Source: Candidatus Micrarchaeia archaeon (GTDB taxonomy: Archaea > Micrarchaeota > Micrarchaeia > Anstonellales > J096). From it: a DNA stretch of 64,000 nt. The translations under genes were made by a program, and so were the position numbers. This document shows, piece after piece, positions 16,164 through 55,567 of this stretch. Below the pieces are notes generated by a model. The model did not search any database and was not told the DNA's origin. It saw only the letters and a list, made by a program, of their open reading frames with translations. Numbering within the stretch: position 1 is the stretch's first letter; each line of letters begins with the position of its first letter. The stretch is from NCBI GenBank assembly GCA_041500865.1, contig JBGQMY010000004.1, forward strand, positions 10,079-74,078, written 5' to 3'.

Positions 16164-17384
16164 TCACCCTACCTCTTCCAGCTCAAGCTCGTCAAGCTCG
16201 ACCGGCTTCAGCGTCATGTCCTGTGCAGGGAACTTGACCCCCGCAAGCACGACCAGCACCTTGAGCGCCGACTTCTTCATCTCCTTCTCTATCCTTGCGC
16301 CGAACTTTATGAGCACGTCCGGAGAAACCCTTTTTGCCGTTTCCTCCACGATATACTGCACTTCCTTGAGCGAGAGGTCCTCTCCGCCGGTTATGTTAAT
16401 CAGTACCCTGTTGGCGGATGAGATGTCCACGTCAAGCAAAGGCGAGCTTAGCGCAGTCTCTATAGCTATCCTCGCCCTCTCTTCCCTGGGCACGTCAACA
16501 TTCGCCTCCCCGACGCCTATGACCGCATACCCGCCGTCCTTCAGCGCGGTGCTGAGGTCCGCGAAGTCAACATTGACCAGGCCTTCCTTTGTGACAAGGT
16601 CGCTTATGCCCTTGACCGAGCCCGCAAGCACCTCGTCGCAAACCCTGAAAGCAGTGTTCAGCGGCAGGTCAGGAGCTATGGTGAGCAGCTTGTCGTTCTT
16701 TATTATTATCAGCGTGTCCACGCTCCTCCTGAGCTTGTCCAGGCCCTGCAGCGCATTCTGGTATTTGACCTTCCCTTCTGACGTGAACGGAAGCGTGACT
16801 ATGCCTATGGTGAGCGCCTTTGTCTCGCTCTTCGCCATCTTTGCCATGACAGGCAGCGAGCCTGTTCCCGTTCCCCCTCCCATCCCGCACGTGAGGAACA
16901 GCAGGCTGGCGTCCTTTATGGACTCCTTTATGACTTCTATGGTCTCCTGCGCCGCCTTCTCGCCGCATTCAGGGCTGCTTCCGCATCCCCTCCCCCTTGT
17001 CAGCTGCTTGCCAAGCAGTATCTTCCTGTTCGCCTTTATCTTCAGCAGATGCCTGGCGTCGGTGTTTGACGCTATGAGCGATATGCCCGTAACGTTCATC
17101 TCGTGGAGCCTGTTCAGCGTGTTGCATCCGCTTCCCCCTGCCCCTATGACGAATATCTTCGGCTCGCTTTCCTCTATGAACTTGAGTATGTCCTCCTCGT
17201 CGTCGCTCGCGCTGGCCGTCATCCCCTCCGCAACTTCCGCGGCGCTGTATTTCTCTTCCTGCGCTGGCATAGGTGCTGTGATGGCTGGCGCCGGCGTTGC
17301 AGGGGCTGGGGCCTGCGGCGCAGCGTTCTGCGCTGGCTCTTTAAGCATCTCCTCAGGCTGGGGCTTTGTCTCCTCTCCTTCCAT
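16164..17384 (-). CDS. ftsZ: Cell division protein FtsZ
   Basis: GAGGSGCN, NTD, GMGGGTGTG, NVDFAD; acidic Pro/Ala-rich N-terminal extension. Confidence 0.97.
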   Translation of the reverse strand: MEGEETKPQPEEMLKEPAQNAAPQAPAPATPAPAITAPMPAQEEKYSAAEVAEGMTASASDDEEDILKFIEESEPKIFVIGAGGSGCNTLNRLHEMNVTGISLIASNTDARHLLKIKANRKILLGKQLTRGRGCGSSPECGEKAAQETIEVIKESIKDASLLFLTCGMGGGTGTGSLPVMAKMAKSETKALTIGIVTLPFTSEGKVKYQNALQGLDKLRRSVDTLIIIKNDKLLTIAPDLPLNTAFRVCDEVLAGSVKGISDLVTKEGLVNVDFADLSTALKDGGYAVIGVGEANVDVPREERARIAIETALSSPLLDVDISSANRVLINITGGEDLSLKEVQYIVEETAKRVSPDVLIKFGARIEKEMKKSALKVLVVLAGVKFPAQDMTLKPVELDELELEEVG

Positions 17385-17499
17385 CTGAACTCACCTTTCG
17401 CTAACGGATTTGCAATATTTGAACAATCATGTTTAAAAAGTTGCCTAAATGTGCCACGTTAAAGATGTCAAAAAAATAAAAAAGAAAATTGAAGAGGAT

Positions 17500-17790
17500 T
17501 CACCTCTTCTTCTTGCCTTTCTTCTTCGCTGCCTTTTTCTTTCCCCTCTTTCTCTTCCTCTTGGCGCCTTTCCTGCCGCCCCTGTTCATCTTCGCCTTGT
17601 ACACATATCCGTCGTTCCCGACGTAATACAGATATCCGGCCTGCTTGCTCACCTTGGCGCTGCCCACCTTCTTCTTCCTTCCGCCGGTGTTGTGCTTCAT
17701 GGGTACGGCCCAGACGCATCCGTCGCTTCCTACGAAGTAGAGATATCCCTTTTCCCTACTTATCTTTTCATTTCCTATTTTTTCTGCCAT
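17500..17790 (-). CDS. Small basic protein with duplicated GYLY[FY]VGxDG repeat and Lys/Arg tail
   Basis: 96 aa from MAEK; GGGGTG RBS-like sequence upstream and oligo-T tract downstream. Confidence 0.8.
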   Translation of the reverse strand: MAEKIGNEKISREKGYLYFVGSDGCVWAVPMKHNTGGRKKKVGSAKVSKQAGYLYYVGNDGYVYKAKMNRGGRKGAKRKRKRGKKKAAKKKGKKKR

Positions 17791-17945
17791 TTTGTATACA
17801 CCCCTAATTTTTCTTCTGTTCGCATTTTGCGTTCCCCTCTTTTTAAACTTTGTCCCCGTCAACCCGACAATCCTACGAATACAGTTGTTTTTAGTGTTGG
17901 TAGCTCGTTGTTTTACGTCGGTTTTCGGTTTTTTTAACGTCGATC

Positions 17946-18002
17946 CTTTTTCTTTAGAAAAGAAAAAGTCTTCACCCCAAAAGAAACTACTTTAGGCGCT
18001 GC
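17946..18002. repeat. Short intergenic element, copy 1 (A/T palindrome + AAACTACTTTAGGCGCTGC)
   Basis: CTTTTTCTTT-aga-AAAGAAAAAG inverted repeat; 19-mer 17984-18002 identical to 19162-19180. Confidence 0.75.
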
Positions 18003-18033
18003 TGCGCCACGACGTGGGATTGCGCCATGCAGC

Positions 18034-18060
18034 CTGATTTTTAATCCTTTGCCGCACAAT
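18034..18060 (+). promoter_or_regulatory. Ankyrin-cassette promoter motif (CTGATTTTTAATCCTTTGCCGCACAAT)
   Basis: Related motifs precede the ankyrin genes at 18565, 19218, 20010, 20439, 22371 and 49674. Confidence 0.7.
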
Positions 18061-18066
18061 GGAATC

Positions 18067-18540
18067 ATGCTGCAGAAAAGAACTCCGGTATTTTCGCCGT
18101 TCCTGCACAAGCAGAAGAGCCTGTCCTTAAGGGCTAGGGAGCGCATAGGCGTCTTTTTCTGGGAATTCGGGCGCTATCTGCAGGACCGCTACGGCACGTT
18201 CAACAGCGACCTCCTTGAGGCAGCGGACCATGGGTATGTCGGCGCAGTTAAAGTAACATTGAAGAAAAAGGAGGTCAATATAAACACGCGGGACAAGTAC
18301 GGCAACACTCCGCTGATTCTTGCGGTCCAGGAAAACAACATCAAAGTAGTTAAAGTGCTGATTGGGAACGGGGCGGATGTTTTCCTGAAGAACAAAAACG
18401 GCGTGAGCGCACTGTCGCTTGCGTCCAGCCGCAAGCGCGCAGAGATAGCCGCTCTTCTTGTTGGGTTTTATTTGGAGAGCGTCCTTGCAGACGGCGCCAA
18501 GCCGTTTTACCATCTATTTAGAGACTGCACCGCCGCCTGA
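18067..18540 (+). CDS. Ankyrin-repeat protein
   Basis: GNTPLILAV, GADV, GVSALSLA; C-terminus FYHLFRDCTAA. Confidence 0.9.
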   Translation: MLQKRTPVFSPFLHKQKSLSLRARERIGVFFWEFGRYLQDRYGTFNSDLLEAADHGYVGAVKVTLKKKEVNINTRDKYGNTPLILAVQENNIKVVKVLIGNGADVFLKNKNGVSALSLASSRKRAEIAALLVGFYLESVLADGAKPFYHLFRDCTAA

Positions 18541-19137: not shown

Positions 19138-19180
19138 AAAAAGAAAGCTGCTGCGGAAAGAAAACTACTTTAGGCGCTGC
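19127..19180. repeat. Short intergenic element, copy 2
   Basis: CTTTCTTTT-aga-AAAAGAAAG inverted repeat plus the identical 19-mer at 19162-19180. Confidence 0.75.
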
Positions 19181-19964: not shown

Positions 19965-20009
19965 GATGAAAAAGCCCTGATTTTTAATTGTTTGCCATAT
20001 GATGAGATC

Positions 20010-20408
20010 ATGGCGTTGAGCGGGGTCGAGTTTCTGATTGCAATGGACAGGGCGGACAACCCGTCCATGCGCATTCCATTCAGGAAAGGCACGGAGAGAT
20101 ACAAGCGCATAATGGAATTCTCGGACACCATCATCCGCGAAAGGAGGCAAAGCCAGCTGGACCAGGATTTCCTGTACATGATGGAATTGGGCAACGTCAA
20201 GGAGGCGGAAAGGCTGTTCTGGAAAGGAGCGGACGTCAACGCAAGGCAGGACGACGACCTTGCCTGGGGCGCAGGAGCATGGGCTGCCGACAGGAAGGGG
20301 GCAGATGCGATGCTCAATAGGATAACGCGCCTGCAAAGCCTGAGGTTCCTTGGAAAAAACGTTTCGTTGCAGTTTTACCGTTCATTCAGGAAATGCCTCG
20401 CCACTTAA
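20010..20408 (+). CDS. Degenerate ankyrin-repeat protein (FxxxFxxC-tail family)
   Basis: GNVKEAERLFWKGADVNAR; C-terminus FYRSFRKCLAT; cassette promoter upstream. Confidence 0.7.
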   Translation: MALSGVEFLIAMDRADNPSMRIPFRKGTERYKRIMEFSDTIIRERRQSQLDQDFLYMMELGNVKEAERLFWKGADVNARQDDDLAWGAGAWAADRKGADAMLNRITRLQSLRFLGKNVSLQFYRSFRKCLAT

Positions 20409-20438
20409 TTTATAATGCCTTTGCCGCACAATAAAGAT

Positions 20439-21179
20439 ATGCGGAAAAGGCAGCTCCAAAGGGATGCACTGGCAGGGAAAACGGCCAAACCAAAAGCAGA
20501 CATCGCGAAAAGCGAGAATCCTGCATTGTCCGAAACGGAGCAGGGGCGGCTCAATGGCGAACTCCTCCGCATTGTAGACGATAGCTTCAAGGCTGACGCT
20601 AAAAAAGCGGAAGAGGTAGAGCGGCTCGTCAACGCAGGCGCGGACATCACAGCAAAGACGCCTGCCAACTGGACAATCCTGCACTGCGCCGCAGCCTATG
20701 GCGACATCGAAACCTGCGCATTGATTATAGGGAAATACGCGGAATCGCACAGAAGCATAAAGGATCTGATTGGCGCAAAGGCGAATGGCGATGATACGGC
20801 CCTGAAAGAGGCCGCAGTCAATGGACATGCCAAAGCCTGCGCATTGCTTATCAGGGAATACGCAAAAGCAGGCGGTGACGCAACTGAACTTATCACCGCA
20901 AAGGACGAATACGGCCAAACAGTCCTGCATAAAGCCGCGAACATCGGAAACACTGATATCTGCATTCTCCTTATGGAGGAATACGCAAAAGCAGGCGGTG
21001 ACGCAACGGACCTCATCTATGCAGAGGACTACAAAGGCAAGATACCCGTGCAGTCTGCTGTAAAATGGGGACAAACCAAAACCAAGCAGTTCCTTGAGTC
21101 ACTCGAAAAGCTTGGAGCAGCCATGGGGAACAAAACATTCAATTCGTTCATGAAATCCTTCAGCGAGTGCATCGCCTGA
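20439..21179 (+). CDS. Ankyrin-repeat protein with 41-aa extended repeats
   Basis: TILHCAA, TVLHKAA, EYAKAGGD twice; C-terminus FMKSFSECIA. Confidence 0.9.
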   Translation: MRKRQLQRDALAGKTAKPKADIAKSENPALSETEQGRLNGELLRIVDDSFKADAKKAEEVERLVNAGADITAKTPANWTILHCAAAYGDIETCALIIGKYAESHRSIKDLIGAKANGDDTALKEAAVNGHAKACALLIREYAKAGGDATELITAKDEYGQTVLHKAANIGNTDICILLMEEYAKAGGDATDLIYAEDYKGKIPVQSAVKWGQTKTKQFLESLEKLGAAMGNKTFNSFMKSFSECIA

Positions 21180-55146: not shown

Positions 55147-55288
55147 GCATTGCGCTTGCGCTGCGGAGTTTTTAACATTATTTGTTTTATTTGTTTTCAA
55201 TGCTAGCTTCCAATGGTAATTATACGCGCGCGTAATGCAAACATTTAAATATAAGGTTCGCATAAAACAAAACCAGAAGTGAATTACG

Positions 55289-55336
55289 ATGGCAGCAAAA
55301 AAGAAGGCCAAGAAAAAAGGCAAAAAGAAGAGATAA
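55289..55336 (+). CDS. Putative 15-aa lysine-rich microprotein MAAKKKAKKKGKKKR
   Basis: TTTAAATA at ~55244, AAGTGA RBS-like sequence, oligo-T tract downstream; shares its last 9 aa with the 17500-17790 protein. Confidence 0.6.
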   Translation: MAAKKKAKKKGKKKR

Positions 55337-55462
55337 ATTCTGAATACAGAATCTTAATTTTATTTTTTTCAATGGAAACGCAGGGGCTCCCCATCTCGCT
55401 TTCCATTCCAATTGTGAAAGGTTTAAATAATTGCGCAGCCAACCTTATTCAGGTGTTTTTGA

Positions 55463-55567
55463 ATGTGTGATGAGAAAGGATGCGTATGCACGTGCGGAAC
55501 AATGAAGAGGAAGGCAAAGAAGCCTGCAAGGAAAAAGGCAGTTAAGAAAGCCAAGAGGAGGAAGTGA
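55463..55567 (+). CDS. Putative 34-aa Cys/Lys-rich microprotein MCDEKGCVCTCGTMKRKAKKPARKKAVKKAKRRK
   Basis: TTTAAATA at ~55422, AGGTG RBS at 55451, extreme K/R/A composition. Confidence 0.65.
   Translation: MCDEKGCVCTCGTMKRKAKKPARKKAVKKAKRRK

Follow-up and report, generated by a model that had tools for sequence, protein, structure and literature searches.

A widespread archaeal family of small basic hairpin-repeat proteins with a lysine-tailed clade in Micrarchaeota: a candidate for nucleic acid binding

HupB-type proteins consist of a small folded domain (HU) followed by a long, disordered C-terminal tail that is rich in lysine, alanine and proline and prone to repeats. Sul7d, Cren7 and CC1, which occur where histones are missing, are lineage-restricted, all-beta proteins of 7-10 kDa with high pI. 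At a still smaller scale, eL41 and bS22 are tiny K/R-rich ribosomal proteins that are made up almost entirely of basic residues and are encoded by free-standing mini-genes. One example of a tailed protein is the mycobacterial HupB/Hlp, a nucleoid protein with a histone H1-like lysine-rich tail; HupB is the subject of PMC5676037.

We were interested in a gene for a small basic protein, denoted P0001 here, that combines features of several of these systems. It lies in a window of 64,000 nucleotides, the whole stretch of DNA that was analyzed, from the genome of a Candidatus Micrarchaeia archaeon (1.04 Mb, 92% complete). As in HupB/Hlp, P0001 joins a folded domain to a disordered lysine-rich tail, the length of which varies greatly between relatives; unlike in HupB/Hlp, the folded part is not HU (PF00216 is missing from the Pfam scan of P0001 even at E <= 10 and has no match in the whole genome), and binding to nucleic acids is here a prediction. 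P0001 resembles Sul7d, Cren7 and CC1 in size, high pI, all-beta content, restriction to a lineage and a background in which no histone was found, but it is an internal tandem of two hairpins and matched neither the SH3-like nor any other solved fold (best Z 2.9). With the YWTD, DUF5050 and PQQ blades and the choline-binding repeats, it shares an aromatic strand, a D/N-G turn and a second strand, recurring every ~36-47 residues, but it has just two repeats, the solved examples were reached at E values of 0.37-0.39, and no propeller was matched by structure. The comparison with eL41 and bS22 applies to a micro-ORF elsewhere in the window, the relatives of which are peptides of 10-35 amino acids (aa), almost wholly basic and encoded by free-standing mini-genes; these differ from the ribosomal proteins in being lysine/alanine-based and without aromatic residues. 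Small basic proteins that carry an H1-like tail are a known kind, but for the folded module of P0001 no description came up in the libraries and literature searched: a full-text search returned, within the text that it covered, no account of the hairpin-repeat family or of archaeal polylysine mini-genes.

A family of two-hairpin basic proteins

The gene, its parts and its surroundings are:

17500..17790, minus strand: P0001 gene with its stop codon, encoding a basic protein of 96 aa; N-terminus conserved in 30 aligned homologs
17680..17790, minus strand: repeat 1, residues 1-37, a short strand and a beta-hairpin around G-Y-L-Y-F-V ... D-G ... M; AF2 strands 16-20 and 26-30, pLDDT >90
17575..17679, minus strand: repeat 2, residues 38-72, same motif as repeat 1; AF2 strands 53-57 and 63-67
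17503..17583, minus strand: K/R/G/A tail, residues 70-96, with a pI of 12.0 and 19 K+R, free of acidic residues; specific to the lineage and fast evolving
17799..17805, minus strand: SD-like AGGGGTG, 8 nt upstream of the ATG, as read from the sequence
17840..17848, minus strand: putative TATA-like box GTTTAAAAA (gene strand), 50-58 nt upstream of the ATG
17470..17489, minus strand: T-rich run just past the stop, likely an archaeal terminator that parts the gene from ftsZ
16164..17384, minus strand: ftsZ, the downstream neighbor, given as context (Pfam Tubulin 3.7e-44, FtsZ_C 1.6e-25)

The open reading frame at 17500-17790 is a real gene. Its translation on the minus strand is, as the earlier note had it, a 96-aa protein with two internal repeats, residues 1-37 and 38-72 being identical at 17 of 35 positions (E 7e-12 in the repeat alignment). 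The start at 17790 is backed by the conserved N-terminus of the homologs, the SD-like site and the TATA-like box; a longer, TTG-initiated reading of 120 aa is unsupported, given that the homologs begin at the ATG and that the same two elements precede it. The pI is 10.6 for the whole protein and 9.7 for the core, with 9.86 for the tailless paralog. As a proxy for expression, codon bias is unremarkable (AAG in 20 of 24 lysine codons, a level reached by 14% of genes).

The AF2 model of the core is confident (block mean pLDDT 89-95 over residues 1-70) and consists of two beta-hairpins, each with a short strand before it, whereas the tail is modeled as a low-confidence helix (pLDDT 56-62). In the alignment of 30 members, repeat 1 has five invariant columns (G15, L17, Y18, G24, M31) and repeat 2 has three (G52, Y55, G61), with M68 almost as constant; each hairpin is followed by a basic R-G-G-like linker. 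The plan of the family is two repeats of ~36 residues, each a beta-hairpin with an aromatic G-Y-L-Y-F-V strand, a D-G turn and a second strand ending in M, followed by an R-G-G-R-K-like linker; P0001 conforms to it, with both repeats, the invariant columns and a core of ~71 aa.

A word-seeded search with residues 1-70 yielded 109 homologs with E <= 0.01 among 150 candidates, most of them 71-85 aa long and named merely 'hypothetical', from Micrarchaeota, Bilamarchaeaceae, Woesearchaeota and Methanomicrobiales. An exhaustive phmmer search of 1.84 billion representatives found 292 proteins at E <= 1e-3, including 68 at E <= 1e-10, and a scan of GTDB species genomes gave at least 599 candidate stretches and at least 540 confirmed family loci. 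Within the same order, the family is present in 29 of 31 genomes, the one studied here included, and many of the 29 have two copies; the two genomes without a match are 90% and 82% complete. The second copy in the genome studied here, on contig 6, is a plain 71-aa protein that ends right after the second hairpin. Judged by these sequences, the P0001 core belongs to a conserved, widespread, uncharacterised archaeal family of basic proteins of ~71 aa, and its spread over Micrarchaeota, Woesearchaeota and several euryarchaeal orders merits a family definition and a structure.

Fusion partners in the family include zinc ribbons, transmembrane segments and an M48 peptidase (P0138, P0140 and P0157 for the latter two). 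In P0212, P0236, P0253, P0141 and P0138, two hairpins are parted by a linker of ~45 residues, or 4-8 hairpins are strung together, some behind a transmembrane helix; from these arrangements, the single hairpin appears to be the evolutionary unit of the family. The copies from Methanoregulaceae/Methanomicrobiales (L003, L007, L010, L015, L019, L024, L043 and L044) are 66-75% identical to the query and form one clade (support 94/89) nested in an otherwise micrarchaeal clade (98/87). Such nesting would fit a transfer of the gene, in either direction given that the tree is midpoint-rooted, between lineages of symbionts and of their possible hosts.

The profile and structure searches turned up no known family of proteins that bind something other than nucleic acids, a finding that, according to the earlier note, would have refuted its reading, and P0001 belongs to no Pfam or NCBIfam family. 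Searches with P0001 and all 30 aligned members gave sub-threshold matches to these libraries (best E 3.9e-4), and no single family was matched by more than 6 of the 30. DUF5050 was matched by two of the 30 (best E 0.0014). Choline_bind_2 was matched by P0001 at E 0.4 and 11.4 bits, against a cut-off of 27. P0001 has two repeats only, whereas propeller rings are closed by four or more blades and choline-binding repeats stand in many tandem copies. No Pfam match to the histone fold (CBFD_NFYB_HMF) was found in P0001, the core model of which is all-beta.

With a threshold of E <= 0.001 or Z >= 3, neither of two structural models found a match. For the 96-aa model, the best Foldseek E value against solved structures was 0.22 and the best VIA-align Z among 48,161 chains was 2.9; no SH3-like barrel of the Sul7d or Cren7 type was among the VIA-align rows, and with this best Z the fold may still apply. 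A relative with four hairpins and a zinc ribbon (P0115; model pLDDT 73.7) was likewise without a Foldseek or VIA-align match. The best E value in the PDB sequence profile search was 0.37, for the YWTD repeats of LRP6, followed by a choline-binding protein (E 0.39), both sub-threshold, and the ESM Atlas returned only 'hypothetical protein' clusters. The theme that recurs below threshold is that of hairpins like those of beta-propeller blades or choline-binding proteins, and among the sequences found by phmmer are bacterial proteins with many repeats that match DUF5050 or PQQ_2 propeller models. A three-copy complex prediction for residues 1-72 (score 0.00, mark 0.42) speaks neither for nor against self-assembly.

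The lysine-rich tail and its shared ending

Most family members end within a few residues of the second hairpin in the 30-member alignment. P0001 continues for 27 residues, a K-rich tail of low complexity and of the long K/A/P-rich kind. When 89 core sequences were placed in a maximum-likelihood tree, the tailed paralogs came out as a single clade (support 99/94) with 10 rows, P0001 and nine others from the taxonomic family of this organism (f1), to which the clade is confined. The proteins of this clade are 87-160 aa long in total, with tails of about 18 to 92 residues, the first dozen of which past the second hairpin are common to all, whereas the remainder is K/R/A/S/T/P low complexity; the tail of one of them (G014) consists of recurring units, made up of small residues (A, P, T) and runs of lysine, and closely recalls the tails of histone H1. 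Other branches have K/R tails of their own (P0174, P0155, P0118 and tree rows of 92-117 aa), and polycationic tails have evidently been gained repeatedly and independently within the family. Such gains amount to a natural experiment on the tuning of such proteins by disordered cationic tails.

Beyond their common beginning, the tails diverge fast. The tail of P0002, which is 96% identical to P0001 over residues 1-70, ends differently, as do those of two genomes of the same genus (G002 and G001), and the contigs of relatives stop matching from about 17537 toward the 3' end of the gene, that is, inside the tail. Such fast divergence among orthologous tails indicates that the tail is selected for composition, not for sequence.

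The last nine residues of P0001 and the stop are the same as those of a 15-aa ORF at 55289-55336, and within these last 10 codons five codons differ, at five nucleotides, all changes being synonymous or stop-to-stop, exactly as the earlier note had listed them. Its further suggestion, that this pattern points to selection on the peptide, has to be given up: the tails of G002, G001 and P0002 do not contain the 9-mer, and its absence even from a homolog so similar over the core argues that there is no selection on it. In addition, the argument that all differences are synonymous is circular, because the identity of the peptides was the criterion by which the pair was selected.

How often K-rich sequences match by chance depends on the comparison. 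Composition-preserving shuffles produced a C-terminal run of at least nine residues in 5 of 200,000 trials and any common 9-mer in 64 of 20,000. Among 216 natural pairs of relatives' tails and micro-ORFs, a 9-mer was common in 4, two of these without the window's own tail, and an 8-mer in 18. The caveat that had been attached to the match, namely that shuffled K-rich tails might often give the same, accordingly did not materialize in shuffles, where matches are rare, but natural K-rich pairs yield them far more often. Runs of more than five residues at the C-terminus were seen only with the window's own tail.

We propose that the nine-residue identity would be a coincidence of two sequences built by one simple rule, in which a small residue and three lysines recur before an arginine closes the peptide, and not conservation or recent copying. 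This reading is probably correct, being about twice as likely as copying in our estimate, although the rarity of the C-terminal register in shuffles and the DNA alignment scores given below run counter to pure coincidence.

The alternative is common descent, whereby the 3' end would have been copied between the tailed gene and the micro-ORF, in either direction, in the ancestor of the genus or in this species, through gene conversion or a short duplication that took the terminator along. Besides the 5 in 200,000 shuffles, it draws on local DNA scores of 30 and 33 for the window's own tail against the micro-ORFs of its own genome and of G002, compared with 10-24 for the other 14 combinations, and on BLAST, which joins the micro-ORF with 33 nt of 3' flank to the gene tail and its flank at 74% identity. 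The similarity of the flanks past both stops is, however, mostly that of a T-run, that is, of terminator composition, and 5 of 30 nucleotides differ without any change of amino acid, while substitutions and indels have accumulated in the orthologous tails of G002, G001 and P0002. Common descent is disfavored because a recent copy would be more alike as DNA and an old one would have drifted as protein. Moreover, the serine common to the tail and the micro-ORF of G002 is encoded by unrelated codons (TCG versus AGC), and natural non-cognate pairs have 8-mers and 9-mers in common at the frequencies given above. Copying therefore seems rather unlikely to us. Concerted evolution of tail and micro-ORF in G002 was rejected because the serine codons differ.

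Polylysine micro-genes

The micro-ORF is accompanied by the following elements:

55244..55253, plus strand: TATA-like box of the micro-ORF, the same element in G002, G001 and G007
55276-55282, plus strand: SD-like GAAGTGA of the micro-ORF, the same element in G002, G001 and G007
55289..55336, plus strand: 15-aa polylysine micro-ORF, its last nine residues those of the tail; orthologous 14-15-aa ORFs in G002, G001 and G007
55337..55369, plus strand: short inverted repeat, then a T-run, directly after the stop

The intergenic block that contains the micro-ORF is 76% identical in G002 over 313 nt, and in G002, G001 and G007, the last from another genus, an ORF of 14-15 aa has been retained together with its start, a TATA-like box, an SD-like site and a T-run past the stop. 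A degenerate pattern of the first nine codons of the micro-ORF, with at most one mismatch, was searched in 401 genomes of the class and matched 28 places in 26 of them; the reversed control pattern gave no match in the 401. Three of the 28 places are N-termini of longer proteins, one is a protein C-terminus at a contig edge, and the rest are ORFs of 10-30 aa. Together with the ORF of G002 and a second ORF beside one match, the pattern ORFs make up 26 distinct micro-ORFs, for which expression signals were compared with those of 896 random ATGs in the same loci:

TATA-like box: 23/26 micro-ORFs, 6% of random ATGs
SD-like site: 15/26 micro-ORFs, 8% of random ATGs
run of at least five T within 45 nt of the stop: 22/26 micro-ORFs, 9% of random ATGs
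all three signals: 11/26 micro-ORFs, 0.2% of random ATGs

By these patterns, the micro-ORF is a real, conserved gene type of its own. The 55289 ORF is the only lysine-based ATG micro-ORF of its kind in the genome, and polylysine micro-ORFs were found in 6 of 31 close relatives (G000, G001, G002, G007, G008 and G022), so the family is either patchy or too variable for the patterns used. Nine places with BLAST matches in other relatives were checked, one of which is a 35-aa polylysine ORF (G022), while the other eight are K-rich parts of larger frames or noise. The idea of a free-standing copy of the tail, put forward in the earlier note, finds no support in these data: the family of micro-ORFs is much wider than the tailed clade, and 568 kb around 80 loci of the hairpin-repeat family contain no ORF of this kind. 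Physical linkage to the family genes was also rejected, the same 568 kb having just one K-rich micro-ORF, of another type and ~1 kb away.

The polylysine mini-genes (55289-55336 together with L084, L116-L127 and L131) encode 10-35 aa, start with M-A-[A/T/V]-K-K-K and usually end in R. They would escape gene callers, being below the length limits, and suggest that very small, highly charged peptides are systematically absent from archaeal annotations.

Several other small ORFs were observed. Downstream of the micro-ORF, by 126 nt, is a second mini-gene (55463-55567, plus strand) for a 34-aa peptide with an N-terminal Cys cluster and a K-rich remainder, which has no Pfam match. In other genomes (L105, L108, L109 and L110), polylysine mini-ORFs that end in Cys clusters occur in tandem with Cys-free ones; the combination of a polybasic stretch with a Cys cluster suggests possible metal binding or membrane anchoring. 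Elsewhere in the genome, a 24-aa R/K/W-rich ORF without a Pfam match (G000:C8:37876-37950, minus strand; L140:177-251) presumably resembles the ribosomal protein eL41, and more so than the polylysine micro-ORF does.

Predicted function and gene neighborhood

The histone fold (PF00808) was detected in none of the 19 genomes of family f1 (G000-G018; 77-94% complete) and in 5 of 12 genomes of neighboring families. Because the pattern comes from one lineage and the genomes are 77-94% complete, the absence of histones counts as a single evolutionary observation. The genome studied here has one Alba gene (G000:C21:7142-7330).

We give an even chance to the reading that P0001 is a non-specific nucleic acid-binding protein, with an H1-like tail as a source of additional charge, in a lineage of family rank whose genomes yielded no histone fold. 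The hairpin core would bind DNA, in which case it would be an architectural protein, or RNA, and the disordered H1-like K/R tail would strengthen the binding electrostatically and without specificity, in the manner of similar tails on other nucleoid proteins. We infer non-specific binding from the basic two-hairpin core, the polycationic disordered tail, the repeated gains of such tails, and the lineage without a detectable histone fold or HU. If the hairpin-repeat family does bind nucleic acids, it would represent a new fold class of archaeal architectural protein and would take the place of the missing histones in a DPANN lineage. Against this reading stand the fusions to transmembrane regions and to the M48 peptidase, neither of which suggests chromatin. 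The hairpin motif, moreover, has a weak likeness to the blades of beta-propellers and to choline-binding repeats, both of which are binders of sugars or proteins. These membrane-protein fusions and the propeller-like motif leave room for a role outside nucleic acid binding.

One such role is that of a protein- or ligand-binding, or self-assembling, module akin to beta-propeller blades, with a tail that would anchor it on a different polyanion, for example an envelope polymer or an anionic membrane. Members fused to transmembrane regions or the M48 peptidase, or with 4-8 tandem hairpins (P0138, P0140, P0141, P0157), fit this picture, as do the bacterial DUF5050 and PQQ_2 proteins reached by phmmer and the sub-threshold LRP6 and choline-binding matches. 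All similarities to solved structures, however, are below significance, no propeller exceeded Z 2.9 in the structure searches, the free-standing form, small and strongly basic, looks cytoplasmic (the alignment shows neither a signal peptide nor a transmembrane segment), and polycationic tails were gained repeatedly. We regard this reading as unlikely.

Gene neighborhoods bear on a second alternative, namely that P0001 is a ribosome- or translation-associated RNA-binding protein and not a chromatin protein. Of 81 loci, 69 could be analyzed, 12 having been dropped since the ORF picker did not keep the family gene. The commonest neighbors are a divergent PAC2 gene (22/69) and, downstream, rpS6e and eIF2-gamma (13/69 each), with the family gene directly upstream of the latter two on the same strand in 13 of the 69 loci. 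The PAC2, S6e and eIF2-gamma neighbors hint at translation or proteostasis rather than DNA, and the R-G-G-like basic linkers after both hairpins and the position of the gene at the head of an ftsZ-secE-spt5 block could be read in the same way. Still, 56 of the 69 loci are without the rpS6e/eIF2-gamma neighborhood, the euryarchaeal loci have no common neighbors, and weak structural alignments to chains of ribosomal proteins do not rise above noise (Z 2.4-2.5), which makes a ribosomal role, in our estimate, slightly less probable again than the propeller-like module.

In the window, ftsZ begins 115 nt downstream of the P0001 gene, on the same strand, and is followed by a short membrane-like ORF without a Pfam match, taken to be a putative secE, and by spt5/nusG. 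The adjacency, which the earlier note had offered as a functional clue, is real, but among 11 relatives' loci compared it occurs in genus g1 alone (G000, G001 and G002), and ftsZ is found in 2 of 80 GTDB family loci, one of the two being the same contig as G001. The T-run after the stop and the separate TATA-like box and SD-like site before ftsZ suggest that the two genes are separate transcription units. That P0001 is a cell-division factor working with FtsZ is therefore very improbable: the same-strand order is kept in G001 and G002, but the confinement of the adjacency to the genus, the intervening signals and the eight other relatives' loci without ftsZ in their 1.5-kb flanks, six of which have tailed paralogs (G003, G004, G007, G011, G014 and G016), speak against the link.

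The preferred reading, that of a non-specific nucleic acid-binding protein, can be extended to a two-part encoded polycation system in Micrarchaeota without a detected histone fold. The hairpin-repeat protein, with its H1-like-tailed paralog, would then be complemented by mini-genes (with promoter, SD-like site and terminator of their own) for free polylysine peptides of 10-35 residues, 'encoded polyamines' that would be the functional counterpart of the tails. This extension is speculative, and we think it unlikely.

On the other side of the P0001 gene, an array of ankyrin-repeat genes (Pfam Ank) begins at 18049. Its genes have common upstream elements of 37-43 nt (within 17942-18069, 19138-19180, 19976-20012 and 20405-20441). 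At 17942-18000, contig depth is 5-8 times that of the surroundings in four metagenome runs, so this stretch is repeated in many contigs.
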